Origin: a virus
Taxonomy: Duplodnaviria > Caudoviricetes
Length of the DNA stretch: 28,031 bases
Direction: 5' to 3' (one strand)
IMG/VR virus record: IMGVR_UViG_3300035548_000535
Coordinates: 1-28,031 of that record
Shown here one piece after another: positions 7,788 to 28,031 of this stretch. Position 1 is the first letter of the stretch; each line of letters opens with the position of its first letter. A program made the translations under genes and the position numbers. The notes under the pieces are model-generated. The model saw only the letters and a list, made by a program, of their open reading frames with translations. It was not told where the DNA came from and searched no databases.

Positions 7788-7939
7788 CTCATCCAACGTC
7801 AGATATCATTCGGTCAAGGCCGGGTGATCAGAACCTGGATAAAAGGGGACTCCACTCCTTCTCGAAAGGGAAAACATATACTTATCCCGGCGGTGAGTAG
7901 CATCATGCCAAAGTGGCCGGGATTTTAAACAAGGAAATT

Positions 7940-8968
7940 ATGCCAAAGACGTATAATAAATTGTGGGACAAGGTTATTGACTGGGAAAATCTCCATCAAG
8001 CATACCTGGGCGCAAGCAAGGGCAAACGATTTCAAAAAGATGTTCTTGAATTCAACTCAAATCTGGAAGAAAACCTGATTAATATCCAGAACCATCTCAT
8101 ATGGAAATCATGGACCCCGGGTCAGTTCAGAAGTTTTATGGTTTACGAACCCAAACAGCGGTACATACAGGCTCCGCCATTCAAGGACAGGATTGTACAT
8201 CATGCCCTGGTACAGGTGATTGAGCCCTTGCTTGAAAGGAAGTTTATCCACCATTCTTATGCTTGTCGGGCAGGAAAAGGTAATCACGCTGCGGTTCTGC
8301 AACTCCAGGATTATCTGAGAGAGGCCGGCGGCAAGTGGGAGAAAATCTATGTGCTTAAAGCAGATATCAGCAAATATTTCCCATCTATCAAGCATGATAT
8401 TTTGTTACAGATTTTGAAAAGAACAATCAGGGATAAAGACGTTTTGTGGTTGTGTGAATCTATAATCCGGCATTGTGGTGAAGACGGCCAGGGAATACCT
8501 GTCGGAGCTTTGACTTCTCAGTTGTTTGCAAATGTTTATTTGGATCAGCTGGATCATTTCCTAAAGGATGAGCATGGAGTTAAGTCCTATGTTCGCTATA
8601 TGGATGACTGGATTGTTCTGGCTCCTGAAAAAGCAGATCTTTGGGGTATTCTGAAGAAGGCTACCGGCTTCTTGAATTTCAGCCTTGAATTAAAGCTGAA
8701 TCCGAAAACCAGCATATTCCCCGTAAGTCATGGGTGTGATTTTTGCGGATATAGAATCTGGCCTACACACCTCTTGCCCAGAAAGCGAAATGTGAAAAGA
8801 GCTAAGTTGAAATTCAAAAAACTGGCTGGACTCTATTTTCAGGGACAGGTCACTTTGGAAGATATCACACCGTTTGTAATGTCATTTCTTGGGTACATGA
8901 AACATTGCAGCTCTTTTAAAACCGTATCGAGCGTGTTGGGTGGCTTTGTTTTGCAAAAAATCGGATAG
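7940..8968 (+). CDS. DGR reverse transcriptase
   Basis: DRIVHHAL, KADISKYFPSI, GIPVGALTSQLFANVYL (DGR-type SQ), YVRYMDD and DFCGY motifs; ATG 7940 chosen from the AAGGA RBS. Confidence 0.96.
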   Translation: MPKTYNKLWDKVIDWENLHQAYLGASKGKRFQKDVLEFNSNLEENLINIQNHLIWKSWTPGQFRSFMVYEPKQRYIQAPPFKDRIVHHALVQVIEPLLERKFIHHSYACRAGKGNHAAVLQLQDYLREAGGKWEKIYVLKADISKYFPSIKHDILLQILKRTIRDKDVLWLCESIIRHCGEDGQGIPVGALTSQLFANVYLDQLDHFLKDEHGVKSYVRYMDDWIVLAPEKADLWGILKKATGFLNFSLELKLNPKTSIFPVSHGCDFCGYRIWPTHLLPRKRNVKRAKLKFKKLAGLYFQGQVTLEDITPFVMSFLGYMKHCSSFKTVSSVLGGFVLQKIG

Positions 8969-8992: not shown

Positions 8993-9595
8993 ATGAAAAA
9001 AATCAGTTTTGTAAATTTCAACCCCAGGGGCATTAAGCCACTGTCGGATGAATTCAAAAAACACAAACTGCCCGTAGCCGATGTGGCGGCAACCAATATC
9101 CCAAAACGGGAAGATGGGTTTCAGATTAAGACTGCCACATTAACTTTTGAAAGCGGGCAAAAATTAATGGTCAAAATCAAAGCCAACGGATCAATTTTTC
9201 AAGTTCGACTTAATGGTAAGGTTGTCCCTGTTAAAAATTCGGAAGACCTTCATGAGCCGAAAAATCTTAAAAAAGCCGTTAAGGAAATGGCTGATTTTGT
9301 CGGTAAAAATGAGGCTGGTTACACTAAACAGAAAGAACGGCGCATGGGAAAAACAACCGGTACTGCTCCTAAACGCGCGTCCACCAGTGTTGCCAAGCAG
9401 CTCACTTTTAACAAGGCCCTGTCTCAGGATCTGCGGGAAGAGAATATAGAGCTTGAGCAAGGGTTGGCCGAAAAAAAACAGAGTGTTGATTCCAGGCAAA
9501 CCACAATTGGCACCCTGAAAGCCGAGCTTGAGACGGAACAGAATCGAAACGATGAATTGAAAGTTGAAATCAACAGCTTGTTGGAGGCGGAATAA
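8993..9595 (+). CDS. hdf: Hdf-like protein (DarA N-terminal domain plus coiled coil)
   Basis: 200 aa; TLTFESGQKL...GSIFQVRLNGKVVPVKN motif; immediately upstream of darA as in P1. Confidence 0.75.
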   Translation: MKKISFVNFNPRGIKPLSDEFKKHKLPVADVAATNIPKREDGFQIKTATLTFESGQKLMVKIKANGSIFQVRLNGKVVPVKNSEDLHEPKNLKKAVKEMADFVGKNEAGYTKQKERRMGKTTGTAPKRASTSVAKQLTFNKALSQDLREENIELEQGLAEKKQSVDSRQTTIGTLKAELETEQNRNDELKVEINSLLEAE

Positions 9596-12210: not shown

Positions 12211-12237
12211 CCCGAAAAGGAACTGAAAGGAATAAAG

Positions 12238-12588
12238 ATGTCGTTATCATTCAAAGAAAAAAATCAGATCCGAAAACAGATCGGGCAGCAAATGACCAGG
12301 CTTGACGGTGCGGAAGGCTTGACTTTCAAAGAAAAGAACCGGGTCCGAAAAGAAATAGGGCAACTGCTTGCCAAGTTGGAAGCCAAGTTGGGCAAGGCTG
12401 AAATCAAAAATAAAAAATTGCAGGATCTTATAGACGGGAAATACATGAGCGTCGACCCGGAGCGGTTTCTTGTCATCCTGAAAGAAATTGTCGATGAAAT
12501 AGGGGATATCGGGCCTGTAAAGGGGCCGGTTAACGAATACCTGAAGAAGAATACACCTGTTAAAAAACAAGAGGGCATAAATGCTTGA
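12238..12588 (+). CDS. ddrA: DdrA-like small protein
   Basis: 116 aa directly after darA; internal duplication L(S/T)FKEKN.(I/V)RK.IGQ; name rests mainly on synteny and size. Confidence 0.5.
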   Translation: MSLSFKEKNQIRKQIGQQMTRLDGAEGLTFKEKNRVRKEIGQLLAKLEAKLGKAEIKNKKLQDLIDGKYMSVDPERFLVILKEIVDEIGDIGPVKGPVNEYLKKNTPVKKQEGINA

Positions 12589-12955
12589 ATTAACACCAGA
12601 CAAATGGAAATTAATCCGGAAAATAAATAAAACGTGGAATGATAAAATCCAGTATGAATCTGATTCCAACCATTATCATAAAGCGGAGCATTGGGCATTT
12701 CCATTCGATGGCACAGGGGATTGTGAAGATTTCGCCATTGCCAAGCGCCAAGCCTTGCTAAGCCATGGGATTGATTCAAGATTTGCAACCTGTTGGTGTG
12801 AAACCGGCGGTTATCATGCAGTGCTGGTTGTGCAGACCGATCATGGCTATTTTATCCTTGATAATCGTCATGATGACGTCAAGGGTTTTTCTGAACTGCC
12901 CTATAAATGGGACAAAATCGAGAGGGAGAATGGCAAATGGTACGTTATTGTATAA
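12581..12955 (+). CDS. Transglutaminase-like cysteine peptidase (BTLCP / peptidase C93) catalytic core
   Basis: GDCEDFAIAKR (Cys), HAVLVV (His) and ILDN (Asp) catalytic triad; no signal peptide. Confidence 0.88.
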   Translation: MLELTPDKWKLIRKINKTWNDKIQYESDSNHYHKAEHWAFPFDGTGDCEDFAIAKRQALLSHGIDSRFATCWCETGGYHAVLVVQTDHGYFILDNRHDDVKGFSELPYKWDKIERENGKWYVIV

Positions 12956-13107
12956 TATTAATTCTATTGGTTGGGATCGGGTGTATCCCTGCCGATCTTC
13001 CACAGTCTGGCGGCCATATCAACACTGGAGAAGAAGTCACTCCCCCGTATGGATATATTGATTATATGGACCATTGCCAAGAAAATAGCAAGGAGGCCGT
13101 TCAATGA
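12937..13107 (+). CDS. Small putative lipoprotein (56 aa)
   Basis: GAGGGAG RBS, ATG 12937; MVRYCIILILLVGIGC hydrophobic signal ending in lipobox-like GIG-C; overlaps both neighbours. Confidence 0.6.
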   Translation: MVRYCIILILLVGIGCIPADLPQSGGHINTGEEVTPPYGYIDYMDHCQENSKEAVQ

Positions 13108-13586
13108 CTTGGAGAAAACTGAAAGGCATTCAGCGGTTCATACCGTCTGAATTCTCGGAAGATCCTGAAAAATACGCGGACCCGGAATTGATTTATGCTT
13201 TAGATTCTTTTGCTATTGCCCTTGGATCACCGGTCCATCCGTCTCCAGCACCTGGGGCATTAGCCCGGTTCGACGGGTCCGTGACATCAAGGCACTATGC
13301 TATAAATCGGCGAAGCGATGGGAGTGACGTCTTTTGCAGCTGCCCTATTTTTAAGGCCTGGTCAACGGCATTACAAGCAGGTGAATTTAACGGCATAGGT
13401 GTTTATTTTGATACCCATTACCGGGGCGATTCATGGCCAATGCTACACCTCGACATGAGACCTCCTGGAAAACGCATCGTTTGGTTCCGGGATGAAGAAG
13501 GCCGGTATCATTACCCTAAAACCGACCCTGATTTCTGGCAGAACTTGGTTGACAGATTGGCTGTGCAAGTAATGATGAAGGGATAG
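13104..13586 (+). CDS. Peptidase M15-like Zn metallopeptidase, candidate endolysin
   Basis: SRH...D motif, GIGVY and LHLDMR (HxD) pattern of the M15A/Hedgehog-like fold. Confidence 0.7.
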   Translation: MTWRKLKGIQRFIPSEFSEDPEKYADPELIYALDSFAIALGSPVHPSPAPGALARFDGSVTSRHYAINRRSDGSDVFCSCPIFKAWSTALQAGEFNGIGVYFDTHYRGDSWPMLHLDMRPPGKRIVWFRDEEGRYHYPKTDPDFWQNLVDRLAVQVMMKG

Positions 13587-13606
13587 CGGAGTATTGAGGC
13601 CGGATA

Positions 13607-15079
13607 ATGACAATTGTTATACAGAACAAGATCAGAAAAGCCGCCTGTTTTGATGATATAGTACAAGCATTTGGCGAGCACTTCGGATTTAATGTTGAAT
13701 CATGGAAACACCAGGCGGATGAAGGGCGGGCCATCCTTGAAAAAATAGATTATGCCCGAAGTCTGTCCAATCCCATTGACAAAGCTATCGCAGGGGCCAG
13801 TATGTCTGAAAATTTGCCTTCAGACAAAGCTCTCAGATTTGCCGGTCTCGATCCAGGCACCTACAAGGCCAATGTGGCGGAAATCTTTCCGTTGGCTGAA
13901 AATGGAAAACCAGAGACAAGTCTCGGCAAAGTGACTTATGAGCAATACTTTAAGGACGGGGTTTTGTCCCCGGATGTGAAGAATATTGCTCAAAAGCATT
14001 TCAAAATATCCAGTCAGATTGAAGACCTGCGGAAAAGGGTTGCTGAAAAAACAGCGGAAATAAATAAGCGCACCCAAGAAAAAGTTGATGAATATTATTA
14101 CAAAAGCGATCTTTCAGAGGCTAAGGACAACATCGTCCGTGTAAATAGAAAGATATCGGAGTTAGGGAAAAAGTTACAACGAAAGATCAACAATGGCGCT
14201 ATATCTATAGAAGAAGCCGACCGTGAATATACCAAATTCAACAAAATCTATAAGGATCAGGCAAAAAAAGACTGGGAAACGTTAAACAGGATACAGGGTG
14301 AGGTGGCTGAAATATATAAACGCTCAGTCATTGAGGTCAATAACGCCTGTGGGAATCTTAATAATGATATTGAAAAGCTTACTACCGAAAGCTTAAAACC
14401 GGCAACCCAGGAATTCTATGAGAAAACCGTTTGTTTCATTCTTGATTCTTCTCCAATCTCAAAAGAAAAAGCCACTATATGGGCTGGATCGCAGTCAATC
14501 ACCGACAGCGCAAAACGACGACTCAAAAAACAAGGTTATCCAGTAGAACAGCTCAAAGAAGATATGGCGGAATTTTACCGGCTGTGTGGTGGGCGTGTCG
14601 AGACATTAGACATTCTTACTGATAGAAAACGGCGGGCACATGCTGATGTCTACGAGAAAAAAGTCTATCTCGATTCCGATTTCAACAAGACCGCACTTTT
14701 TCATGAAATGGCCCATTTGTTGGAAAGCAATGAGCACATCAGAAGAGCGTCCAACCATTTCCGGGATAAGAGAACCCAGGGAAAATCGCTTAAATCCCTT
14801 CGGACATTAACGGGGAACAAAGGATATAAGCGCAATGAAAACGCTTTTGAAGATGGCTTTATTGATCCGTATGTTGGGAAATACTACTCCAGCGGGATGA
14901 CCGAGGTTTGCAGTATGGGGTTCCAGCAGTTTGCAACCCCGGACAAAGCAATGGTTTTCTATCAAAAAGATCCCGAAATGTTCCAGTTTATTTTTGGGAT
15001 GATGAACTCCCCAATTACGGACTTGGAAAAAAGAAGGATAGACGCTGCCGGAAAAGCCGGGAAGGATGGTGATAAATAA
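13607..15079 (+). CDS. ddrB: DdrB-like virion protein with C-terminal zincin (HExxH) domain
   Basis: FHEMAHLLE and YVGKYY...TEVCSMGFQ motifs; position downstream of darA/ddrA. Confidence 0.6.
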   Translation: MTIVIQNKIRKAACFDDIVQAFGEHFGFNVESWKHQADEGRAILEKIDYARSLSNPIDKAIAGASMSENLPSDKALRFAGLDPGTYKANVAEIFPLAENGKPETSLGKVTYEQYFKDGVLSPDVKNIAQKHFKISSQIEDLRKRVAEKTAEINKRTQEKVDEYYYKSDLSEAKDNIVRVNRKISELGKKLQRKINNGAISIEEADREYTKFNKIYKDQAKKDWETLNRIQGEVAEIYKRSVIEVNNACGNLNNDIEKLTTESLKPATQEFYEKTVCFILDSSPISKEKATIWAGSQSITDSAKRRLKKQGYPVEQLKEDMAEFYRLCGGRVETLDILTDRKRRAHADVYEKKVYLDSDFNKTALFHEMAHLLESNEHIRRASNHFRDKRTQGKSLKSLRTLTGNKGYKRNENAFEDGFIDPYVGKYYSSGMTEVCSMGFQQFATPDKAMVFYQKDPEMFQFIFGMMNSPITDLEKRRIDAAGKAGKDGDK

Positions 15080-16002
15080 TGGGACAGGCAATAGATATTA
15101 TGAACACTTACCCGGAAACGCCATATCTTTTCGAGGTCAATACCATGATTGGACCGGGTGCAATTCGGATTGACGAGACCCAATGGGATGTGCCGGCAAA
15201 GATCACGATTGAAGATTACGGGCTAAACGGCGTTGCTCTTTGCATACGGGACTTTTTTCAAAAATACGGGTTCGGCATGGAGGGAAAGTTTATTTCTCTT
15301 AAAGCAGCATCCCCTGTGGATATTGACCGGGCTCTTGCCTTGTATTTCGAAAAGGAGGATGCTCCGATCAAAGGGTTCAAGATCATATGGGGATTTGTGC
15401 CAGAAGAATCGCCGGACGATGACCCTTCCCTTGATGATTCGGCAGGCATTTTTGAAAGCGCCCTGGCATTCAAGGAAAAGAAATTCAAGCTCCAGGACAG
15501 CTATCAATTCCAGGGACTCCCTATTTCCATTGAAAATAAAAAAGGGTCTTACCGCCGTGGTGTTGACCCGGGTGGCCATGAATGGAAAATCCGGATGTCT
15601 TTTGATTATGGTTATATTCGAAAAACAAAAGGTGCCGATGATGAAGGCGTTGACGTTTATGTGGGCCCGGATCGTTCCGCAAATCATGTTTATATCGTAA
15701 AGCAACACAAGATAGAAATGATAAAGAAGTGGGAGGGCGAATACTGCCCGGATTGCAATGAACACGTTCACGATTGCGCCTGTCCCAAGTATTTTGACGA
15801 GGATAAGGTGTTTATCGGGTTTCCGAATAAAAAAGCCGTGGTCGAGGCTTATGGAAAGCAATATGACTCCCCGCTCTTTATGGGTCCCATTTCAACCATG
15901 ACCATTGAAAAATTCCGCTCCATAGTTTGCGGCCCAAAAGAAGAAGTCAAAATCCCCCTGCAATTTGTAGGAGAGTCCTGCAAACAGCAAAAAGAAAATT
16001 AA
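15079..16002 (+). CDS. Two-domain protein: N-terminal domain at the P1 Hxr position fused to an inorganic-pyrophosphatase-like domain of polyvalent proteins
   Basis: FQGLPISIENKKGSYRRG, DYGYIRKTKGADDEGVDVYVGP and FDEDKVFIGF motifs; acidic linker; Cys/His-rich insert. Confidence 0.75.
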   Translation: MGQAIDIMNTYPETPYLFEVNTMIGPGAIRIDETQWDVPAKITIEDYGLNGVALCIRDFFQKYGFGMEGKFISLKAASPVDIDRALALYFEKEDAPIKGFKIIWGFVPEESPDDDPSLDDSAGIFESALAFKEKKFKLQDSYQFQGLPISIENKKGSYRRGVDPGGHEWKIRMSFDYGYIRKTKGADDEGVDVYVGPDRSANHVYIVKQHKIEMIKKWEGEYCPDCNEHVHDCACPKYFDEDKVFIGFPNKKAVVEAYGKQYDSPLFMGPISTMTIEKFRSIVCGPKEEVKIPLQFVGESCKQQKEN

Positions 16003-16004
16003 GA

Positions 16005-16481
16005 ATGGAGGCCCTTTTGAAAATTGATATTCTAACTACTGACTGTACAGAACGCCTGGGAAACCGACTGTGGGTGTTAACCCAACCATTTATTTTCACC
16101 ATAGATGGGAAATCCTACACGATTCCCACAGGCTTTGTTACCGACGGGGCCAGCTGCCCCAGGCCGCTTTGGTCGATCTGCTCTCCCGTGGCCGGACCGT
16201 TTGGCCAAGGGGCTATTCCCCATGACTGGTTTTATAACGAGGGGCCGGACATCGGTCGCCTTCAGGCAGACATGGTGCTTTACGCCATAGGGAGGTTTCG
16301 GGGTGCAAACATTGCCCGTGCCCAGGCCGTGAAATCCGGCGTCAACATGTTTGGATGGATGAATTATAAAAAAGGAATCGACAAGCTTACCGATGCGGCT
16401 TGTTATGACTTGGAAAAAGCCAGGGTCAGGGTGGCGGAATTAATAAGCCAGCGGTCACCTGGTCAGTTAATAACAGTATAG
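16005..16481 (+). CDS. DUF1353 family protein
   Basis: IPTGFVTDGASCP and AIPHDWFY...ADMV motifs; ATG 16005 directly after the upstream stop. Confidence 0.85.
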   Translation: MEALLKIDILTTDCTERLGNRLWVLTQPFIFTIDGKSYTIPTGFVTDGASCPRPLWSICSPVAGPFGQGAIPHDWFYNEGPDIGRLQADMVLYAIGRFRGANIARAQAVKSGVNMFGWMNYKKGIDKLTDAACYDLEKARVRVAELISQRSPGQLITV

Positions 16482-16495
16482 AAAAGGACTCTCTC

Positions 16496-19400
16496 ATGTT
16501 GGATACCACTCTCGTTGAGAATGATTTAGTTTTAGAAAGGGCATTACAGCCAGACATCTGGAGCCGAATAAAAGACGCACAATCATACCAGGATATTGCC
16601 CTGGTTTTTGCGGATGTTTATGGATTGAAAAATGTTCCGGGGCTGGCAACCGGCCCAACCGCTTATAAAAATGAAAATTCGGATTTCGGGTTAAAAGTAA
16701 GGGGCATTAAGACCCGGGAAAAAATAAACGCCAAAGCCAGGGATATCTTGAAAAAAGCAGACTCCCTGAAAGATCTGTCCCAAGAGGATATTGATTTCCT
16801 GAAGCAATACTCCGGACGTGGCGGACTGACGGAAAACTCCCAGTTCGAATACTACACGCCCACTCCCATAGCCGAGGGTGTGTGGGATATCTTGAAAATG
16901 CACGGGTTCAAGAATGGTAATGTGCTGGACCCCTGTACCGGTGCCGGGGTATTCCCCTCCACAAAACCGGAAGGTGTCTTGATGACTGGGACGGATATCG
17001 ACCCTGTGGGCTCCAAGATTGCCCAGATGTTCAATCCTGAAGATTCCATCAATAACGGTTCTTTTGAATCCCTGGTGGTCAAAACCGATGATAATACTTT
17101 TGATTCCGTGGTCGGAAATGTGCCGTTCGGCAATGCTCGTGGAAAAAACATCCATGACGACCCGGCATACAAGACCGAGAAAACCATCGAACGGTATTTC
17201 CTATTGCGGATCATGGACAAACTCAAGCCCGGCGGCCTGGCCTGCCTGGTGGTGCCCATTAATATTGTCGGTGCTAAAAATGACAAATGGAAACACTTCC
17301 GTATTGCCATGAGCAAGAAGGGTGAGTTTCTTGGAGCACACAAACTTCCGTCCAAGGCATTTGGGGCGCAAGGCACAGATACGGTTGTCGATATCGTTGT
17401 TTTTAAAAAACACCCGAAAGACCTGCTCGAAAAGATTGATGATATTGACTTTGGATCCTTGAAGGAATCAAAGGTCGTATGGGACGAATTCATCAATGGA
17501 CAGTATTGGATGGGTGAAGGAAAGCGGTTCATTCAGGGAAAATACGTCCCCAAGGCAGTAGGGGAGCGGTGGAGCAGGGAGACGGTTGATGGTGATATCG
17601 ACCCAATTGCGGTCAAGAAAAAGCTTGCACAGCAGTTTAATTCCCGGATTGACTGGGATGCCCTAAAAAGTGCCCCTGTGAATATTAAGAATTATGCCGA
17701 TGGCGATCAGAAAATAATCAACGGTATTCAATACGAAATGCTGGATAATGAATGGCAGCGGGTCCACCAGGCCGAAAAAGAAAGTATTGGTGTTGACGAA
17801 AACAAGTATGGTGCCAAAACCATTGAAGACCTTAAAGCCATCCTTGCTTCCCCGGAAGGATCATTGCAGTTGACTGCCAAACAGTTATTTGCTGTTTATA
17901 AAACCTGGCCGGACATGCTTTCCACTCTGCAAAAAGACGCAGTTGAATTTTCCATGAGCCAATCCGATGAAAAATTTCACGAGCAGGCCTGCCGGGGTAC
18001 TATTATTGGTGGGCTTTTGGGTAGGCTGAAAGCCAACCCGGACGAAGATGAACGGACCCGCCTGCAAGAAATGGTGGTCGCTGAGATAAACAAGTACGGC
18101 CACCCGAAAAACAATGGCCAGTTATGCCTGACCGGTTCTTCTTCCCGTGAATTCGGCCTTTTTATGAATTCCGTGGGTGAAAAAGGGCAGTTCTCTGATT
18201 TTCTGGCCGGTACCCTGAAAACCGATAAAAGTGAGTTTGATTCCACCAATGTTCAATCCATCGTTGAACACCTGTTCGTCCGGGAGGGCATCCATACCAT
18301 TGAGCTTGAGGATGTCAAAAAACTCTATGCTGGCACCATGAAACTGGATACCCTGGGTGATCTGGCTCAGGTGGAGAACATTGCCATCACAGCAGAGGGC
18401 ATGATCATGCCTTTCGGCAGATACACAGCCGGGGATATTTATGTCAATGTCCAGGCCATGACCGATGCTATGGCAGATGAGGAAGACGACAGGATTACGG
18501 CAAAATGGCAACAACAGATAGATGCCATCAACAAAAAACGCAAGGTCACGGCAACCGAAGATATCAGCTTTGGATTGCAGGACAAATGGTATCCGAAAGA
18601 ATATCTGATCAGTTTCCTTCGCGAAAACGGTTACCCGAACGTGAAATATGGGTATTATGAGAAAACTGAAAAAGAAGATCCTCTTGATGGGTCTGTGTTC
18701 AAAAGCAAACAGTTTGTCGAAGACGCAAACGCAATCGGCGGGGAAATCATAGGTATTGAAGGGAGCGGTTTCCCCAAACAGTTTTTAAAATACCTGAACG
18801 GCGGCAAAATCACATCTTCCAAAGCAGAATATATTGAGCAATACAAAAACGAGTGCAATGCCATCACGGAAAATTTCAATGCCTGGATGCAGCAACATGA
18901 AGATATCGACCAGGTTGCGGCAACCTACAATCGAAAATTTAACGCGTTCCTGCCCCATGAATACGAAGATACCGATTTGCACCTTGAAGGTTTTTCAAAA
19001 CAAGTGAAGCTACATGGATACCAAAACTCTGCTATCCGAAGACTTTCTGAAGAAGGCCGGGGCATTCTGGGGGATGATGTAGGGCTTGGAAAAACATTCA
19101 GTGCAATCGCCCTGGCTCAATATAACAAACAGATGGGCAGATCTAAGAAAACCTGTATCGTGGTCCCGGATGCAGTCCTGGCCAACTGGTATCATGAAGT
19201 CAACTTTCTTACCGGCAACATGAACGACGTCCTGTTTGTTGGTTTTGAACCCAAACGGGACAAAGAAGGCAATATTATCCGTGAAGCCGTGAAAGATGAA
19301 GCCGGGCAGAAAAAGATTAATAAGCTTACTGGAAAAGCCGAATATCAGGATGTGTTGATAAAGCGCAAATCTAAAAAAGAGATCTGGGAAAAAATGTGGG

Positions 19401-22400
19401 AAATTCCCACCACCAACAAGCCCCTTGTCATAATGACCAAGGAAAAGTTTGGCTCCATCCCCATGCGGCCGGAAACCAAAGGCCGGTACACCTCTAAAAT
19501 GGTGGATCGATCCTTGATCAGCGATAAAACAGAAGAATCGCTTTTAAAAGAAGGTAAGAAAAGTTACCAGGATGATAAAACCAAGGCCAATCTTGAAGCA
19601 AAATATAGCGATGAGGGCACGAGAAAGAAAGAAGAACTGCCGTATTTTGAAGACATGGGATTTTCCGATGTGATTATAGACGAGGCGCACGAGTTCAAAA
19701 ACAGCTACCAGCCCGGTAAGGATACCAAGGGTATTGCGTATCTGCCCACGGCACCGTCCTCAAAAAGAGCCTTGGATATGACACTGAAAACATCCTACCT
19801 GAAAGACGTCAATAACGGACGCGGGGTCTATCCTCTCACTGCAACCCCGGTCACCAATTCTGTGTTTGAAATTTACAACATGCTCTCCTATGTCTGCCCT
19901 GTTGAAGAATTCGAACGATTCGGGGTTTACACTGTCGATGATTTTGTAAGGGTTTTCGGCAAAATCGAATCGGTTGATAAAGTGATGGTCAGTGGAGAGG
20001 TAAAGCCCCGCGACGGTCTGGTGGGATTCAGGAACCTGGACGGGTTGCGAAACCTGTTTCATAAATATACCATTCTCAGGAACGCCGAAGATGTGGGTCT
20101 TGAATTACCCCCGAGCGAAGAGATAAACGACGAGGTGACCCTGACCGGCGAACAAACAGATATTTACAACATCCTCAGAGAAGAGGCAAAGGAAGCTGCA
20201 AAGCCGGGGTCAAAGGTAAGTATGTTTTCCGTTATCCGGGACATGGACCGAATCACCACAGACATTGACCTGTATAACCACAAAATGACATTTCATTTCC
20301 GACTAGAGGATGAGGCAAAGGTTCAAAACCTTGTGGCCGACCTCCCGGGCACAATGACTGTGACCGAAAAAGGCGAGGACGGCCGGTTGTATAAAAACGA
20401 AATTTCTGTTACCCACGAAACTTTTAAAAAAGACGGGGCGTTTGTCCTGGTAGTTCCAGAACAGGTGGAAACAGCGGTTATAACCCGCCTGACCAGATTC
20501 GGCATTGATGAAAACGACGTGTCGCACCCTTTGATGCCCAAATATGCCAAGCTGATAAAAAACCTGCGGTTGCACCTTGAGGCAAACGGCAAGCAGATTA
20601 TCTTCACCGAAGAAAAATCGCAGCACCAAAAAATCAAACGGATACTGGCGCATCATGTTCCGCTTGCCCAGGGCATGATCGGCATCATCAACGCCGAAAC
20701 AGCCGAGGGAAACAAACTGCAAAAAATCTCAGACTCTTACAACTCAGGCAAGATAAAAATTGTAATTGCCAACAAAAAAGCAGAGGTCGGGGTCAACCTT
20801 CAGAACGGCACCACCGCCATTCACCATCTGACCCTTTGCTGGACGCCGACAAGCATCCAGCAAAGAAACGGACGCGGGGCCCGACAAGGCAACAAGGCAA
20901 AGAACATCAAGATTTATTATTACCTGGGCGGCAAATCATTTGATTACTATCGCCTGGACCTGCTGAAACGCAAATCCAACTGGATGCGGGAACTCTTTAA
21001 TGGGGATGCCACCGAGTCTGAAAACGCCAATGCCCTGTCACAGGATGACATGATGGACCTGTTGGCGGACAACCCGGAAGAGGCTAAACGCCTCCGGATG
21101 GAACGCCTGGCAAAACAGAAAGATGAGCGGGAAGAACGGGAACGCCGTCGATTGATTAATATGATGCAGCAAGTCGGGAATATCAATGAAACCCTGACCC
21201 GGTTTGATGAAAAGCGGGAAGAACGACGCAAAAAGCTTGAGGATGATATTACCGAGCATGAACGGGTGATTGCCGATCTCCGGGAAAAGGGCTCAAGATT
21301 TGAAAAAGGGGATGAACGCCGAAAAAATATCGGTACCCGGATCATCAAGAGGCAAGGACGGTTAAGAGAATCAAAAGACAATCTGGACGTACTTGATGCG
21401 GCTTTCGATGACAGAAAAGTTGCCCTTGAAGCCAAAGCAAAACAGCTTCGCGGTGTCCTGGATCTGAAAGCCAAAAAAGGAGAACTCCCCTTTGATGCCA
21501 GACTCATTGATCACCCCGAGGATATAATAGCCACCCTGGACGGCAAGGTAATTGCCGTGGGCGATACATATGAAGACGGTCGGAATGGTGGAGGCGGTAT
21601 CTGCCGGATCACCAAGGTTTTTAATAAACCAAAATGCTTGCAGTATGAAGCGGTTATCGGAGATATTTATGGATTGAAACAGTCCTGGCTAAGGGAAATA
21701 GACGGGCAGGTGGTTCTTCTTAACAATTGGCCCTTTGATAAAATGATAAAATGTGCCTATTCAGAAAAAGAACTGGCCTTGAAAAAGATCCTGGACACGA
21801 CCATGGACTACGTGGATATTGCCGGGATCGATAAGACTATTTTTTATGAGAATCTTGACAAAGTAAAATTGTCTGGTGATATGCTTATCCGAACTGATGA
21901 CGGGTATGTATTCCAATATTCATCGCGTATTGAGGACCGGAATACAATTGTTTACCCTGAGCCGGACAAAGAGAGTTTCCGGAAAGCCCTGGCTGAAACC
22001 TGCCTTGCAAAGGAACGGGAAAATGGTTACTTGCCGTCTTCTGCTGAAGATATTTTGTCGAAAGTTTTCGGTACAACCTATAAAGAAGCCATCCTGAAGT
22101 ACGGCAAAACCGCAACTGAAACCGAAATCAGAAGTTTTTACAGTGATTTTGTTCAAAATTACCTTGATGAAAATCTGGAAAACGGGGCCAATGAGACCGA
22201 TCCGCGCAAAATGCTGGAAATTTTTGCAAAACGATATTCCAGTGGGTTGTCGCGTTCTATAAAAGACGCGGCCAGGAAACTTGGGGACAACACGGACCAG
22301 ATCAGGCAGATAACAAGGGAGTGCCTGCGGAATCAGGAAGAAGGATTGAGAGAAAAAGTCAGGCAGATTGAAAAAGAGGAAGAACGGGCCAAGCTGGAAG

Positions 22401-22726
22401 CCGTCAAGGATCATCCGGATTATAAAGAGATCCCCGAGCGGATACAGGAAGCTTTTAGACAGATGGGCATCACGGTTAAAACGAATATGACCCAGGCTGT
22501 ATTGTCCGGTGGCAGGCGGTTCAGGGATACCACGGTCGAACCGTTCTCCCGGTGGTTCTTCCAAGATGAGCATGGCAAAGGCGGCGTTCTCTTCCGGGTG
22601 AAAGATATCCTGAAATCCCGGTATGGTGCCAAATTTTTTAGCAGTTACTCCGGAGATTTTCAGGGTGCCTGGTGGCATGTGGATTCTAAAGAAGACCTTG
22701 AAGATATCTATGAATTAATGGCGTGA
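16496..22726 (+). CDS. darB: DarB: N6-adenine methyltransferase plus SNF2-type helicase, virion-delivered antirestriction protein
   Basis: 2076 aa; EYYTP, VLDPCTGAG and VGNVPFG (MTase); DVGLGKT, DEAH, TATP and QRNGRGARQGN (SF2 helicase). Confidence 0.92.
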   Translation: MLDTTLVENDLVLERALQPDIWSRIKDAQSYQDIALVFADVYGLKNVPGLATGPTAYKNENSDFGLKVRGIKTREKINAKARDILKKADSLKDLSQEDIDFLKQYSGRGGLTENSQFEYYTPTPIAEGVWDILKMHGFKNGNVLDPCTGAGVFPSTKPEGVLMTGTDIDPVGSKIAQMFNPEDSINNGSFESLVVKTDDNTFDSVVGNVPFGNARGKNIHDDPAYKTEKTIERYFLLRIMDKLKPGGLACLVVPINIVGAKNDKWKHFRIAMSKKGEFLGAHKLPSKAFGAQGTDTVVDIVVFKKHPKDLLEKIDDIDFGSLKESKVVWDEFINGQYWMGEGKRFIQGKYVPKAVGERWSRETVDGDIDPIAVKKKLAQQFNSRIDWDALKSAPVNIKNYADGDQKIINGIQYEMLDNEWQRVHQAEKESIGVDENKYGAKTIEDLKAILASPEGSLQLTAKQLFAVYKTWPDMLSTLQKDAVEFSMSQSDEKFHEQACRGTIIGGLLGRLKANPDEDERTRLQEMVVAEINKYGHPKNNGQLCLTGSSSREFGLFMNSVGEKGQFSDFLAGTLKTDKSEFDSTNVQSIVEHLFVREGIHTIELEDVKKLYAGTMKLDTLGDLAQVENIAITAEGMIMPFGRYTAGDIYVNVQAMTDAMADEEDDRITAKWQQQIDAINKKRKVTATEDISFGLQDKWYPKEYLISFLRENGYPNVKYGYYEKTEKEDPLDGSVFKSKQFVEDANAIGGEIIGIEGSGFPKQFLKYLNGGKITSSKAEYIEQYKNECNAITENFNAWMQQHEDIDQVAATYNRKFNAFLPHEYEDTDLHLEGFSKQVKLHGYQNSAIRRLSEEGRGILGDDVGLGKTFSAIALAQYNKQMGRSKKTCIVVPDAVLANWYHEVNFLTGNMNDVLFVGFEPKRDKEGNIIREAVKDEAGQKKINKLTGKAEYQDVLIKRKSKKEIWEKMWEIPTTNKPLVIMTKEKFGSIPMRPETKGRYTSKMVDRSLISDKTEESLLKEGKKSYQDDKTKANLEAKYSDEGTRKKEELPYFEDMGFSDVIIDEAHEFKNSYQPGKDTKGIAYLPTAPSSKRALDMTLKTSYLKDVNNGRGVYPLTATPVTNSVFEIYNMLSYVCPVEEFERFGVYTVDDFVRVFGKIESVDKVMVSGEVKPRDGLVGFRNLDGLRNLFHKYTILRNAEDVGLELPPSEEINDEVTLTGEQTDIYNILREEAKEAAKPGSKVSMFSVIRDMDRITTDIDLYNHKMTFHFRLEDEAKVQNLVADLPGTMTVTEKGEDGRLYKNEISVTHETFKKDGAFVLVVPEQVETAVITRLTRFGIDENDVSHPLMPKYAKLIKNLRLHLEANGKQIIFTEEKSQHQKIKRILAHHVPLAQGMIGIINAETAEGNKLQKISDSYNSGKIKIVIANKKAEVGVNLQNGTTAIHHLTLCWTPTSIQQRNGRGARQGNKAKNIKIYYYLGGKSFDYYRLDLLKRKSNWMRELFNGDATESENANALSQDDMMDLLADNPEEAKRLRMERLAKQKDEREERERRRLINMMQQVGNINETLTRFDEKREERRKKLEDDITEHERVIADLREKGSRFEKGDERRKNIGTRIIKRQGRLRESKDNLDVLDAAFDDRKVALEAKAKQLRGVLDLKAKKGELPFDARLIDHPEDIIATLDGKVIAVGDTYEDGRNGGGGICRITKVFNKPKCLQYEAVIGDIYGLKQSWLREIDGQVVLLNNWPFDKMIKCAYSEKELALKKILDTTMDYVDIAGIDKTIFYENLDKVKLSGDMLIRTDDGYVFQYSSRIEDRNTIVYPEPDKESFRKALAETCLAKERENGYLPSSAEDILSKVFGTTYKEAILKYGKTATETEIRSFYSDFVQNYLDENLENGANETDPRKMLEIFAKRYSSGLSRSIKDAARKLGDNTDQIRQITRECLRNQEEGLREKVRQIEKEEERAKLEAVKDHPDYKEIPERIQEAFRQMGITVKTNMTQAVLSGGRRFRDTTVEPFSRWFFQDEHGKGGVLFRVKDILKSRYGAKFFSSYSGDFQGAWWHVDSKEDLEDIYELMA

Positions 22727-23649: not shown

Positions 23650-25335
23650 ATGTCTGAAAAAAAAGAAAATAAAAAAGCAAAAAAGAAGTCTCTATGGGGC
23701 CGGTTATTCGGTGGCTTCGATAAAGATCGGAATGACCAAGGCTCTAACATTGTCGAAATGAACTCACAGGGGGCTGTCCGTGATCTGTCCCCGCTACAGA
23801 GTGATTTTCTCGCGCAAAGCGGAGTGGTGGCCGCATCCGAACTTGGGACAGCCGAGACTGAGCAATTCCGGTATCAGTTCCCAATAGAAAGACTTGCTAA
23901 GTATAGCGTTCTGTCTTCTATGGATAGAGATCCGACGATCAATGCGGCAATCACACTGCATGTCAACCAGGCGCTCAGTGCAAAAACGGCTACCGGAGAA
24001 ATTATTTCCATTGAGTCCACATCGGACAAAGACAATATCTACGTCAAAGACCTCCGCGATACGTTCAAGGAATTAATCAACAAAAATTGCCAGGGATGGG
24101 CCTACAATGCCGCGTTAAACGGTGTCTGGTATGTCAGGCCATATGGTGCCCAAGGTGTCGGAATCAAACATGTCAGGAGTGATTTCTATACCCATCCGCG
24201 TTTCATAAAAGAGTACGAACACGGCGGACAGCTGGCCGGGTATACTCATGCTTACCAGGATGTAGCCAAAGAGGGCCGGATAGAATTGATGGAGCCCTGG
24301 AAATTTGTGGCCTTTAAAATTCCGAATATGAAAAATGACGCGTTCATTGAGCCGATAAGATACGACCAGGAAAAATTTGATATCGGGGATGATGATTGTC
24401 TTGCTGAAGAGCTGCTGGAAACGCAAACATATGGTAAATCAATCATTGAAACCGCATTTGATCCCTGGATGGATCTTCAGAATGCAATCCTTTCCGTCAA
24501 TATGAGCCGTCGAAATGCTGCTCGACTTGAACGGGTAGTGGGCGTGAATACCGGCAAGCTTTCCCCGAGAAAAGCCGCTGAATATTTGAACTCCGTGGCT
24601 GGCCAATTAAAAAAAGCCAATGAGCAACATGCGAAACAGGCTATTTCAAAAGGATTTTTTCAAACAGTCATAAATCATCTGATTCCCATATTCGGGGATC
24701 GTGGGCGGCTGGATATATCCACGGTTGAAGGGTCTCCTAACATTGAAGGGCTTGAGGATATAATGCTACATGTTAAGAGAGTCGGCGGTGCTGTAGGAGC
24801 TGATCCTAGCCTTTTGGGCTTTGGCGACATGCTCTCGGGCGGACTTGGAGAAGGCGGATATTTCCGGATGTCGGTACTTGCTGCGGTCAAATCGAATCTT
24901 ATCCGCCAGGCAATCCGAAATGGCATCGAAGAGCTGTTCAACATCCATATTGCCTTCAAATACGGAAAATACTTTTTGCCCGGGCAACGGCCCTGGAGGA
25001 TCGTTTTCAATTCTATTTCCACTGCCGTAGAGCGGGAAGAAATGGAAAACATGGAAGGCCGGGTCAATTTTGCAACGATGGTTGCAACGCTTGTCCAGAC
25101 CATGGACCCTGAATTTTCCAAAATAGATTTTAATTCGTTCAACAATTATTTGTGGACGGATATCCTGCGGGTTGATGAAGAAAAGTATTCTGCCATCTTT
25201 CCTAAGAAAGTAGAAAAACCGGAGCCCGGTCAGGGGGATGATGATCCAGTATTGGAGTCCGCCACGACAGACGACCGGGTGAATGAAATAATAGATAGAT
25301 TTTACGAGAGAGGAAATTATGCCGGAAATAATTAA
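23650..25335 (+). CDS. prt: Portal protein (P1 Prt-like)
   Basis: 561 aa; MDRDPTINAAITLHV, YGKSIIETAFDPW and DPSLLGFGDMLSGGLGEGGYFRMS motifs; followed by protease. Confidence 0.85.
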   Translation: MSEKKENKKAKKKSLWGRLFGGFDKDRNDQGSNIVEMNSQGAVRDLSPLQSDFLAQSGVVAASELGTAETEQFRYQFPIERLAKYSVLSSMDRDPTINAAITLHVNQALSAKTATGEIISIESTSDKDNIYVKDLRDTFKELINKNCQGWAYNAALNGVWYVRPYGAQGVGIKHVRSDFYTHPRFIKEYEHGGQLAGYTHAYQDVAKEGRIELMEPWKFVAFKIPNMKNDAFIEPIRYDQEKFDIGDDDCLAEELLETQTYGKSIIETAFDPWMDLQNAILSVNMSRRNAARLERVVGVNTGKLSPRKAAEYLNSVAGQLKKANEQHAKQAISKGFFQTVINHLIPIFGDRGRLDISTVEGSPNIEGLEDIMLHVKRVGGAVGADPSLLGFGDMLSGGLGEGGYFRMSVLAAVKSNLIRQAIRNGIEELFNIHIAFKYGKYFLPGQRPWRIVFNSISTAVEREEMENMEGRVNFATMVATLVQTMDPEFSKIDFNSFNNYLWTDILRVDEEKYSAIFPKKVEKPEPGQGDDDPVLESATTDDRVNEIIDRFYERGNYAGNN

Positions 25336-26332
25336 ATGTCGATTCAATTTATTTGACGAGGGACGGAAGTATACTGGGCATCACCGCCAGTATGTGTTGG
25401 AAAATGCGAGAAAGGTTTGTTACGCACCGGGTACCAGGGAAGGTCTAAGATTGAGAGAAAAACTCGGATATCTGGGGCATGGCAGGCGAGAGATGGCCGG
25501 GAAGGTTCGAATCGGTGAAGTCGAAAAAATCAAAGCACCGGACGGATCAATGATGGTGGTTGAAAATGTGCCCAGCAATGTTACGACTTTTTTTGAAATT
25601 GATAAAGACGGTAATGTCGATCACCATCAGGAAATTTTATTCGAGAATACTCCGGGAAAAGTGGTTTCCGGGCTGAACAAATCCAAAGTTGGTGGTTTCT
25701 CCTGGGCTATGGGCGGAAGCGACGGTGGTGCTCATGGTGCTACACGGGTAGATTCCTTTGAAGGGTTCGATTATGTGATGAATCCGGGTTTTTCAGCGAA
25801 CCGTGGTTATGTGCTGGAATCTGCCGGAACAAAGGATCTGATCATGGAAAGCATCTGCAAAACAGGCATCGAAGACAAGTTGGCCGAAAAGTACATTGAA
25901 AGCTGGACGGCATCCGTTCACGATTATGTGTATGAGCTGGAGGAAAGGCTTGCCAGTGCTGAGATATTCGAATCCGCCATGATGGAAAAAAATGAAATTC
26001 TTGATAACCAGGTCAAGGAACTTGAAGGGCAGATAAAAGATAGACAGGCGTTAATCGCTGAATGCGCCAATGGCCACGCCATCGTTATCCCGGACGAAGT
26101 GACAGAAGCTCTTATCAGCATGGCCAGTGAAGAGGATTTCAACACGCTGGTCGGTTTCTTTGAATCTGCAAAGAAAGCTGAATTATCAAGGTACCCGCTG
26201 CCGGGGAATGGTCAGGAGAAAATCTTCGTCAACCAACACCAAGCGATAGAACCACCTGAATATGGTCAAGCGGCTGCGGCTGTTGATTTTGAAGAAAAGC
26301 GGTTCTTCACCGCCAGGCAGAACAACAGGTAA
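25319..26332 (+). CDS. pro: Prohead (head-processing) protease (P1 Pro-like)
   Basis: 337 aa; GYLGHGRR, GGFSWAMGG and GFDYVMNPGF (His/Ser/Asp of gp21/assemblin-like proteases). Confidence 0.85.
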   Translation: MPEIIKCRFNLFDEGRKYTGHHRQYVLENARKVCYAPGTREGLRLREKLGYLGHGRREMAGKVRIGEVEKIKAPDGSMMVVENVPSNVTTFFEIDKDGNVDHHQEILFENTPGKVVSGLNKSKVGGFSWAMGGSDGGAHGATRVDSFEGFDYVMNPGFSANRGYVLESAGTKDLIMESICKTGIEDKLAEKYIESWTASVHDYVYELEERLASAEIFESAMMEKNEILDNQVKELEGQIKDRQALIAECANGHAIVIPDEVTEALISMASEEDFNTLVGFFESAKKAELSRYPLPGNGQEKIFVNQHQAIEPPEYGQAAAAVDFEEKRFFTARQNNR

Positions 26333-26334
26333 AC

Positions 26335-26625
26335 ATGGGTGGTGATAATGACATACAGGATAGGCGGCTTGATTGCATAGAAAAAGCCATTGAGGCGTTG
26401 GCAATGCAGAATGAGAGGGCTATCAGGCAGGATGAAAAAATCATCAACCTACAAGGTCAAGTAGCTATCCTCTTTGAGAAATTTGATGGTATTTGGGGTC
26501 CAGCCGGTACACTGAATGCAATCCAGAGACATCAAGCGTCATGCCCAAAAACTCAGGTAAAGTGGCTGTGGGGGGCTATCGGGTCAATGGCGTTGGCAAT
26601 TATTGTTAAATTTCTGGAGAAGTGA
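26335..26625 (+). CDS. Small coiled-coil protein with C-terminal TM helix (holin/XhlA-like lysis accessory candidate)
   Basis: 96 aa; heptad N-terminus and WLWGAIGSMALAIIVKF C-terminus; position after pro. Confidence 0.5.
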   Translation: MGGDNDIQDRRLDCIEKAIEALAMQNERAIRQDEKIINLQGQVAILFEKFDGIWGPAGTLNAIQRHQASCPKTQVKWLWGAIGSMALAIIVKFLEK

Positions 26626-26659
26626 ACTGCCCAGGCCTAAAGGCATTGGGTAGCTCACT
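26621..26659. repeat. Imperfect palindrome resembling two fused IS200/IS605 right-end tips
   Basis: agtgaactgcccaggcctaaaggcattgggtagctcact; both strands end in TCAC after a GC stem with a TAAA/TTTA loop. Confidence 0.55.
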
Positions 26660-26733
26660 AATGTCGTGGATCACTGGCTCAACGCCTGACCACAATCTTT
26701 GCAGTATTTTGCGCCGTTAATCCTATAGCCGGG

Positions 26734-26765
26734 GTGACACTCCACAGGGCAAGCCCTGTGGCTTC
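26734..26765 (-). repeat. IS200/IS605 right end
   Basis: Minus strand GAAG-CCACAGGGC-TT-GCCCTGTGG-AGTGTCAC: perfect 9-bp stem, guide GAAG, cleavage motif TCAC. Confidence 0.85.
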
Positions 26766-26778
26766 AAACGAAGTTTGA

Positions 26779-26895
26779 TTACACATTTGCAACCCTTATT
26801 CGTTTAGGGTACGCCACAATACCTTTTATCATCTCAGGAGTAAACTCCATTGATGTTACTTTTGATTTACGAGCTATGTTTATGGCTCCATTTAC
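26779..26895 (-). pseudogene. tnpB: 3' remnant of tnpB (last 38 codons)
   Basis: Translates VNGAINIARKSKVTSMEFTPEMIKGIVAYPKRIRVANV*, matching the TnpB RuvC-III (NAD)VNGA.NI.RK and terminal G.V..P.RI pattern; immediately 5' of the RE. Confidence 0.8.
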
Positions 26896-27710
26896 ATTTT
26901 CAAATTTTTCCATTTATTATATTTCCTTTCCATATATATATTTGCATCTTTATATAACCATTCCATTATTATATTCACTTGTTCTCTACCACAATATTTT
27001 AATGATACAGAAGATTTTCTTCCTTTATGTTTTTGATAGAACTTTGTTTTATTAAAATTAAATTTTTTTATTAAAATATTCTGAACCATCTCTAAAAAAT
27101 CTTTATTGCCTTCTAACGTAAACACATAATTATAATTGTTATATTTGATGTTTTGATATTTACCTATAGAACCATCACCATCAAAATACCCTCTAATGAA
27201 ATGATTATATAACTTTTCATCTAACCATTCAGGAAATTGTAATGTTAAAGATTTCCCCTTAGTACATCCTAATTCTTTTAATTTATTAGATATATGTTTG
27301 TTTTCGATATTTAAAGAATACGCATTTTGACCTATATTTTTTTTGATGTATCTTAATGGTTTGTCACTCTTAATAATCTTTTTTAATTTCTTTAAGATTT
27401 CTACATCTTTTTCTTGTAGTGTTAAATGAACAATCCCTTTTTCATCATTATAACCATCAGCATAAAGAAAACCTAAAAAGTATGCTTTTTCTTCTGTGTC
27501 AATTTCATCAAAAAATCTTTCATCTATAAAATATTTTCTTTGTAATTCAGATTGAGATTTAGATTTATACCCACGTCTATTAAGAAGACCTTTGATTGCT
27601 TGTAGAGTTACCCCATATTTTTTTGCTAAACTTGTGAATGTATAATTACCAGTTTCGTATAAACGACACAACTCTATTTTTTCTAAATCTGTTAATCGTC
27701 TTTGTTTCAC
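26892..27710 (-). CDS. LAGLIDADG homing endonuclease with N-terminal HTH
   Basis: Two motifs, AYFLGFLYADG and HFIRGYFDGDG; N-terminal LAKKYGVTLQAI HTH; AGAGGA RBS and GTG start; very AT-rich (one 60-nt line counted at 22% GC). Confidence 0.92.
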   Translation of the reverse strand: MKQRRLTDLEKIELCRLYETGNYTFTSLAKKYGVTLQAIKGLLNRRGYKSKSQSELQRKYFIDERFFDEIDTEEKAYFLGFLYADGYNDEKGIVHLTLQEKDVEILKKLKKIIKSDKPLRYIKKNIGQNAYSLNIENKHISNKLKELGCTKGKSLTLQFPEWLDEKLYNHFIRGYFDGDGSIGKYQNIKYNNYNYVFTLEGNKDFLEMVQNILIKKFNFNKTKFYQKHKGRKSSVSLKYCGREQVNIIMEWLYKDANIYMERKYNKWKNLKM

Positions 27711-27750
27711 TTAATCTTATCCTCTAAATATTATGTTTATTGCTACCTGT

Positions 27751-27779
27751 AATATACTAACATATTTAGAATTTGTCAA
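27751..27779 (-). promoter_or_regulatory. Sigma70-type promoter driving the LAGLIDADG gene
   Basis: Minus strand TTGACA-17 nt-TATATT, about 40 nt upstream of the start codon. Confidence 0.8.
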
Positions 27780-27799
27780 GTGATTTTTAAATTATTTTG

Positions 27800-27851
27800 C
27801 CAATTCATCCTCGGGGCAAGCGGACGAGGTTTTCTTGGAAATTCCCTATAA
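27800..27851 (-). repeat. IS200/IS605 left end with TTAT target tetranucleotide (27851-27848)
   Basis: Minus strand TTAT|AGGGAATTTCCAAG-AAAA-CCTCG-tccgcttgccc-CGAGG-ATGAATTGG; guide AAAA at +15..+18. Confidence 0.75.
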
Positions 27852-27906
27852 CGGTTGAACTCACGGGCGGGTGCTTTTCCCCGTCCCGTGTAGTGATTGG
27901 TTATGC
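27848..27906 (-). other. Integron attC-like recombination site, interrupted in R' by the IS element
   Basis: Minus strand GCATAAC (R'')-CAATC-ACTACACG (L'')-GGACGGG-gaaaagca-CCCGCC-CGTGAGT (L')-TCAACC-GTTAT (R'); two extrahelical bases at the usual positions. Confidence 0.75.
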
Positions 27907-28029
27907 CTTTTGTGCCAAGTATCCAGAACATAGGTGGACACCAATTATTGTCAGTGTACAGTTCTGCTTCGATTCATAATCACGGCTGAAAGCTTTGGGG
28001 ATTGGGTTTCTTGTGACAACCACATTCGT
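27901..28029 (-). CDS. Possible 3' end of a cassette ORF entering from beyond the window
   Basis: Frame open from the window edge and stopping at the TAA inside attC R'' (...GYLAQKA*), as is typical of cassette genes; too short to verify. Confidence 0.3.
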   Translation of the reverse strand, partial: TNVVVTRNPIPKAFSRDYESKQNCTLTIIGVHLCSGYLAQKA

Positions 28030-28031
28030 GC

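Follow-up and report, generated by a model that had tools for sequence, protein, structure and literature searches.

The window, the 28,031-nt stretch of viral DNA analysed here, carries on its minus strand an IS605-family derivative (27847-26734) in which, as we confirmed, a LAGLIDADG endonuclease gene lies where tnpB stood (Table 1). The original prediction had listed a TTAT target, a left-end hairpin, a near-consensus sigma70 promoter, an intact 272-aa gene, the last 38 tnpB codons and a right-end hairpin closing in TCAC, and each of these parts proved to be where it had been placed. GC content is 0.24 across the endonuclease ORF as against ~0.45 in its surroundings. Only TnpB residues 379-416 are kept and the RuvC-III Asp is replaced, leaving no intact TnpB in the element, and no tnpA was found in the window or in L001, a contig that is identical to the window over 4137/4137 nt, extends beyond it and carries the same insertion.

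Table 1. Features of the element and of the frame it interrupts, in window coordinates and in minus-strand order.
Feature	Position	Strand	Basis or remark
Interrupted small frame, 5' part, 28 codons	27848..27931	-	In-silico excision; gene status putative
TTAT target tetramer, outside the element	27848..27851	-	TTAT also 5' of the left end in 12 relatives
Left end: 5' segment, guide AAAA (27833-27830), subterminal hairpin (27829-27809)	27809..27847	-	Match to L245/L268
Sigma-70-type promoter, TTGACA-17-TATATT, 11/12 consensus	27751..27779	-	Conserved in four intact elements
Leader of the cassette, including a ribosome-binding site, AGAGGA (27725-27720)	27711..27743	-	Common to L086, absent in intact elements
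272-aa endonuclease gene, GTG start, N-terminal HTH and two LAGLIDADG motifs (D85, D179)	27710-26892	-	Pfam, PHROG, fold
Right junction: last endonuclease codon and stop read from the tnpB Asp-Val codons	26892..26897	-	Alignment to L314
Final 38 tnpB codons (26895-26782) and stop, N-A/S-D-x-N type	26779..26895	-	P0122 (416 aa) 95%; L314
Right end: guide GAAG (26765-26762), hairpin, TCAC ending at 26734	26734..26765	-	Identical to L314
Interrupted small frame, 3' part, 20 codons and stop, CxxC	26671..26733	-	In-silico excision

The surrounding 28-kb virus record encodes baseplate, tail, portal, Hdf-like and DarB-like genes, and its gene content together with that of L306, the sole related phage found (75% in the neighbouring protein), suggests a P1-like phage-plasmid. 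The whole element region is missing in L306, where parA-like and repA-like genes with iterons (labels by eye) occupy the corresponding place (L306:4900-7050). Elsewhere in the window, a reverse transcriptase gene (7913-8968, plus strand; phrog_1423, E 7e-136) lies 3' of the tail genes and may be part of a diversity-generating retroelement, and Hdf-like, injected-protein and DarB-like genes span 8993-22726 (plus strand).

Excising 27847-26734 in silico joins 27931-27848 to 26733-26671 in a 48-codon frame, with no target duplication at 26733, and the first bases of the downstream part would be the omega-RNA guide. We found no homologue of this frame, and no empty allele of the insertion site either in L306 or in a pattern scan with the downstream flank, which matched only the identical contig L001. 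Two hairpins resembling IS605 right ends flank the element, one per side (26654-26622 and 27893-27853, both minus strand, ending in GTTCAC and GTTCAAC), and had no match among the other loci.

Both ends of the element were traced to intact relatives, in agreement with the boundaries originally proposed. The first 37 nt after TTAT equal those of L245 and L268 apart from a single change, CC in place of GG, which removes the top two pairs of the left-end hairpin and may lower the mobility of the window element. This left end follows TTAT in intact tnpA+tnpB elements of ~1.87 kb (L245, L266 and L275), in the tnpB-only element L268 and in gene-less miniature elements, the end family being represented among the last by L248, L251 and L279. 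TTAT precedes the left end in L245, L247, L248, L250, L251, L266, L268, L275, L307, L311, L314 and L316, and subterminal hairpins with guide tetramers at both ends are common to the tnpA-bearing L245, L266 and L275. On the right side, a right-end pattern search of viral contigs returned 40 stretches and a tail-pattern search 11; the latter include L314, an intact left end-tnpB-right end element that is identical to window positions 26897-26734 at 164/164 nt. The expectation that both ends could be mobilised has good support on the right side and less on the left, where the hairpin is weakened.

The TnpB origin of the tail, another part of the original prediction, was borne out at the protein level, where 47/47 candidate C-termini passed at 68-97% identity; most of these proteins carry the TnpB families PF01385 and PF07282, and the full-length P0122 is 95% identical. 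The RuvC-III type of the tail is named NADXN, of the 'Derived TnpBs', in PMC10278001. The tail by itself matched 0 Pfam families, and BLAST against annotated phages and plasmids returned only short matches within the endonuclease gene, with a weak TnpB match for the tail (E 0.4). Identity between the window and L314 ceases at the G of the Asp codon in N-S-D-V-N-G-A, exactly where the junction had been predicted, with the end of the endonuclease gene read from tnpB sequence; in the TnpB frame the junction reads Asn instead of Asp. From its position, the tnpB tail is inferred to overlap the presumed omega-RNA scaffold, a putative region with an RNA fold z of -2.0 and 164 nt identical to the intact parent. 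Rfam gave no match in this region, on the element as a whole or on the ends of 17 related loci, and at E <= 1 across 24000-28031 it returned only a chance lncRNA match elsewhere.

Since the TnpBs of elements with this L245/L268-type left end carry a different tail, the window element would be either a chimera or the derivative of an exact parent absent from our sample. A second copy of the cassette sits on a different left end: L086 equals the intact element L316 until 7 nt past the -10 box and equals the window from there on. One cassette (3 mismatches in 676 nt) is attached, in the window and in L086, to two types of left end, and the crossover lies in the promoter. Promoter-like sites in the region number 8, at the chance level (mean 7.4), and this same promoter is conserved in four intact elements; on these alignments, the left crossover between IS and endonuclease cassette is within or just past it. 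The L086 cassette, with its L316-type left end and its right part cut off, lies at a site unrelated to that of the window. At L086:2350-2370 the left end is preceded by ..GCGTGTCAC (right-end-like TCAC) instead of TTAT and lies within a P-loop gene, a context that is possibly a mis-targeted integration.

The encoded protein is a predicted LAGLIDADG endonuclease, with two motifs, putative catalytic acidic residues and the fold of that family. Pfam assigns PF14528 (E 1.9e-10) and an N-terminal HTH, PF04218 (E 1.2e-4), PHROG assigns phrog_4645 (E 9e-61), and D85 and D179 are invariant in 62/62 aligned relatives (61 of the 120 listed matches used). The predicted structure (pLDDT 92.6) has I-Tsp061I (2dch) and I-AniI as best Foldseek matches (E 6.5e-9; 16-19% identity to solved proteins). 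With these two-motif enzymes it shares the acidic-residue motifs and a fold match; it differs from the solved ones in its extra N-terminal HTH and in not being located in an intron. The family comprises 1730 clusters (50% identity, E up to 1e-30), and within the L088/L009 clade dN/dS is 0.15-0.23 for pairs whose dS exceeds 0.2, which shows purifying selection on the gene family. We rejected an intein, as the gene is a free ORF with its own start and stop and Pfam shows no Hint match, and an intron or IStron, as Rfam detects no group I ribozyme and the IS ends account for the flanks. IStrons (PMC4227781, 10.1101/2023.11.20.567912) likewise unite IS605-family parts with another selfish module, whereas the 137 nt from the left end to the start codon here have no Rfam match.

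We then asked how far this arrangement extends among relatives of the endonuclease, fetching at least 243 loci (three of the scans being the best 80 each) and keeping 214 after merging duplicates and removing loci cut at the 3' end. A TnpB-tail motif lies near the endonuclease stop in 7/14 loci at >=44% identity, compared with 0/62 at 37-44% and 0/138 below 37% (0/200 more distant loci), and with 2/592 other ORF ends serving as controls, one of them a true tnpB. Merging hid L090 and L166 under L089, and the motif missed L087, in which tail and right end are visible by eye; a strict right-end scan, which also misses ends visible by eye, scored 3/13 close and 0/197 distant loci. Tail fusions in frame with the endonuclease occur in 13/272 relatives with a locatable end, compared with 1/5440 shuffled extensions; P0030 is a further tail fusion seen by eye, and P0036 also bears a TnpB N-terminus, a 31-residue stub that was the only exception when L001-L243 were searched for a split tnpB with its 5' part upstream. 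The combination of endonuclease and tnpB tail is, as had been supposed, a recurrent class and not an accident, with different tails joined at the same codon.

The left sides of these elements vary, with an intact divergent tnpA (133 aa) in L165, a truncated tnpA in L088, L008 and L091, a left end only in L009, L089, L090 and L166, and a small gene in L087; L006 (53% identity) is free-standing, without an IS. The L008 and L009 elements belong to one 40-kb viral record, G004, where they are separated by 5 kb and differ in both left side and tail. In a quick tree the window protein groups with P0003, outside the L088/L009 clade, and the IS label changes 10 times against 16.3 when shuffled, a figure that gives no count of origins because most unlabelled rows are proteins without DNA context. 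Further sampling comprised a gene-end DNA pattern of the clade (21 matches, 18 unrelated), a second clade query that yielded no loci beyond those already collected, cellular genomes sampled in one order (1/401 matches, the seed itself) and three MAGs with single matches each on short contigs.

The junction with tnpB is more uniform. The tnpB part begins inside the Asp codon in the window, L088, L008, L009, L089, L090, L091, L165, L166 and L300 (the gene 5' of the L300 tail is truncated by the contig end), and P0358, 98% identical to the L166 tail, has N-R-D immediately before it. L089 and L166 agree at 1054/1057 nt between the left-end core and the endonuclease stop, whereas the next 90 nt agree at only 32/90 and the outer left ends are unlike. 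In the TnpB frame, the L009 and L166 tails differ by 7 synonymous codons and 1 non-synonymous codon (12 codons), and the L088 and L008 tails by 8 synonymous and 2 non-synonymous codons, with dS of 0.34 between their endonuclease genes. Because the tail differences are mostly synonymous, they would have arisen in working tnpB genes that were captured separately. The L088, L165 and L300 tails may share one capture, and L090 is a recombinant with its crossover inside the endonuclease gene and not an independent junction; we count about seven apparently separate junction events at one nucleotide. In-frame fusions start one to ~5 codons past the Asp, with a variable endonuclease end, and keep the Asp in none, and a scan of the 75-600 nt past the stop in the 214 loci turned up no longer tail. 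In 19/20 intact tnpB loci, duplicates among them, GAT encodes the Asp and x-AAY-G comes next.

As a control, we located the breaks in 14 distinct endonuclease-free derivatives, leaving out ten rows at or near a contig end, duplicates and L249. Relative to the Asp they fall at -187, -47, -39, -15, -5, +1, +3, +14, +24, +33, about +57, +69, +117 and +124, positions being BLAST starts against the best intact relative and rough for diverged derivatives. Five of the 14 thus break upstream of the Asp, and two at the Asp codon itself (L256/L310/L312 and L313, at +1 and +3). L256/L310/L312, L313, L252, L253, L257 and L265 are right-end-only remnants, in which flanking DNA is joined to an internal tnpB site, often TTAT to ..AT, and the omega-RNA region is left without a left end. 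Because two of the derivatives break at the Asp codon and several others join TTAT to an internal ..AT, TnpA-type cutting can reach this site without the endonuclease.

Such cutting bears on the passenger reading, already raised in outline in the original prediction and in our view the main alternative, if the less probable one. Here the endonuclease would have a target in another phage gene, or none of present relevance, and would only ride on IS ends, with junctions made by TnpA. An IS would insert at the ..AT that ends the endonuclease gene, a deletion would then remove the interior between the left-end cut and the ..AT in the Asp codon, and selection would retain the whole omega-RNA for a TnpB acting in trans. 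AT is indeed common to every DNA junction and the TTAT target; in 2/14 cases, remnants that keep only a right end have TTAT or TTAC fused to the Asp codon, and in several more to other ..AT sites; L135 and L126 have a passenger layout; and PMC10055086 describes PATE-like elements with omega-RNAs that would need TnpB in trans and a flexible choice of boundaries. Three steps would nevertheless be required per swap. The stretch from tnpB to the right end in L314 holds 133 AT, 25 GAT, 4 TTAT and 12 TTAA, of which all endonuclease junctions use the same one, and omega-RNA retention permits breakpoints upstream of the Asp, yet none is seen. In IS608, guide and target tetramers pair by a rule, and the left ends of L009, L089 and L166 come after TTAA, not ..AT. 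A passenger role by itself leaves the repeated tail swaps at one nucleotide unexplained.

A fixed, one-sided breakpoint at the best-conserved tnpB codons, beside a conserved site-specific nuclease gene, is the scar expected of cutting and repair, and we lean slightly towards a model in which the endonuclease cleaves tnpB at the conserved catalytic codon, is copied into elements that still carry tnpB and is mobilised by TnpA supplied in trans. The protein would make a double-strand break near the Asp codon, a site that the converted element would lack, and repair would copy in the cassette, relying at one flank on homology in the left end or promoter and at the other on loosely paired tails and right ends. 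The outer left end, the tail and the right end would all be those of the recipient, the junction marking the cut; comparison of L166 with L089 and of the window with L086 does suggest that outer parts stay with the recipient. Converted elements would then be moved to new TTAT sites by TnpA in trans, or in cis in L165, which keeps tnpA. The omega-RNA end would be retained because it lies beyond the cut, and may still guide TnpB made elsewhere. LAGLIDADG enzymes read their central four bases loosely, and the variable codon after the Asp would fall among these.

Several findings run counter to homing into tnpB. L135 keeps a 32%-identical relative of the endonuclease beside an intact tnpB with its Asp codon, conversion would need the pairing of tails just ~35-70% alike, and the IS link is absent in most relatives (0/200 loci below 44%). 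Breaks at the Asp codon also occur in the 2/14 endonuclease-free remnants, and the AT of all DNA junctions is shared with TTAT. The window, moreover, yielded neither an empty allele nor a tnpA, and its left-end hairpin is weakened. At a more general level, we see an even chance that this LAGLIDADG family parasitises RNA-guided transposons, recognising the catalytic-codon sequence of distant TnpB clades, replacing tnpB and inheriting transposon ends, transposase and guide RNA, all of this taken jointly.

The same junction evidence would fit a nuclease that serves to kill competitors, one that benefits its carrier by damaging tnpB on plasmids, in the host or in phages of a mixed infection and leaves the junctions as rare repair scars, and homing endonucleases can kill divergent competitors (PMC13565253, section 3.2). 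A TnpB zinc-ribbon found no match in 5/5 records with such elements, an absence that is based on five incomplete fragments (6-59% complete). Tail swaps as frequent as point mutation (L089/L166), however, suggest routine conversion, and we consider a competitor-killing function improbable.

Less probable still is the other role originally suggested, in which the endonuclease took over the empty-site cutting of TnpB, cleaving the donor site after excision and so retaining the element. The gene does sit in the place of TnpB, under its promoter and between two retained ends. Against this, the empty sites predicted for the window, L009, L088, L091 and L165 have nothing in common beyond the tetramer and AT-richness, the same cassette occupies two unrelated sites in the window and L086, and the near-identical endonuclease genes of L089 and L090 likewise lie at unrelated sites. 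Section 6.3 of PMC13565253 treats such a drive as nearly impossible for protein-based recognition. These observations speak against the suggested takeover.

With IS200/IS605 tnpB-only and tnpA+tnpB elements, the window element shares a tetramer target, hairpin ends with guide tetramers, the lack of a duplication and a tnpB 3' end overlapping the right-end RNA, and its direct parents are of the kinds represented by L314, L316, L245 and L268. It differs from them in having no TnpB and in a protein-guided nuclease gene that spans the interval from the promoter to the RuvC-III Asp codon. The tnpB-only elements form the IS1341-type group. PATE-like derivatives (PMC10055086) likewise combine a left end, an omega-RNA region and a right end without a transposase, whereas the window element has an 816-nt nuclease gene, of a family under purifying selection, and a fixed junction in place of scattered deletions. 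The intronless homing genes Seg and Mob of T4 (PMC13565253, section 3.2) are likewise phage nuclease genes without intron or intein and, as in the mechanism favoured here, involve a cut in conserved coding sequence and repair from a donor. The target here would differ in being another selfish nuclease gene inside a transposon, one that is replaced and not merely co-converted, and the product has discrete transposon ends.

A search of the open literature (with subscription journals, ISfinder/TnPedia and bioRxiv supplements outside its scope) found no description of this architecture. The element is apparently an undescribed kind of IS605 derivative, built from known parts. A 2026 review argues in its section 6.3 (PMC13565253) that homing endonucleases guided by protein lend themselves poorly to retaining transposons, in that they cannot track a target that changes with each jump, and cites there one untested case of such a nuclease in a transposon. 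Protein-guided nucleases here occupy the place of tnpB repeatedly. If tnpB is indeed the target, this would add a new layer of conflict among selfish elements, with IS605 elements as homing sites and a naturally occurring nuclease directed against the ancestor of Cas12. A free-standing homing endonuclease would thereby escape the fixation trap, transposition making new target copies, and one route to the loss of tnpB from IS605 elements, together with an exact predicted cut site, would be in hand. For annotation, ORFs labelled 'LAGLIDADG endonuclease' with odd C-termini may be transposons.

Further observations concern individual relatives and the tail. In the window (26914-26782, minus strand), L088, L008, L091 and L165, and so in both endonuclease clades, the TnpB frame has an ATG 3-6 codons 5' of the junction that opens an ORF of 44-55 aa, mostly TnpB tail; other lineages translate the tail as an in-frame fusion, and L087 has neither this ORF nor a fusion. 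The small ORF may be a chance occurrence or may encode a tail peptide with a role. L135:2056-4489 holds tnpA, the 32%-identical LAGLIDADG gene and the intact tnpB in tandem, and L126:2077-3301 holds tnpA and a LAGLIDADG gene in tandem, starts and stops abutting in both; these may represent a passenger layout or an intermediate. In L249, 569 nt ahead of the right end, a different ORF in which a LAGLIDADG-like motif is visible by eye is fused in frame to a tnpB tail ~66 nt past the Asp codon. L092:1-1330, with a 45%-identical endonuclease gene, a tnpA-like C-terminus with a hairpin on one side and a short tail with a right-end-like hairpin on the other, is probably another member of the class. 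In L003:2289-3420, a 40%-identical endonuclease gene is flanked 5' by a 45-aa stub that looks like the N-terminus of an IS607 resolvase and 3' by omega-RNA-like motifs (labels by eye); the locus is possibly an IS607 version. A Pistol ribozyme (58.5 bits) is present at L091:2953-3025, minus strand.
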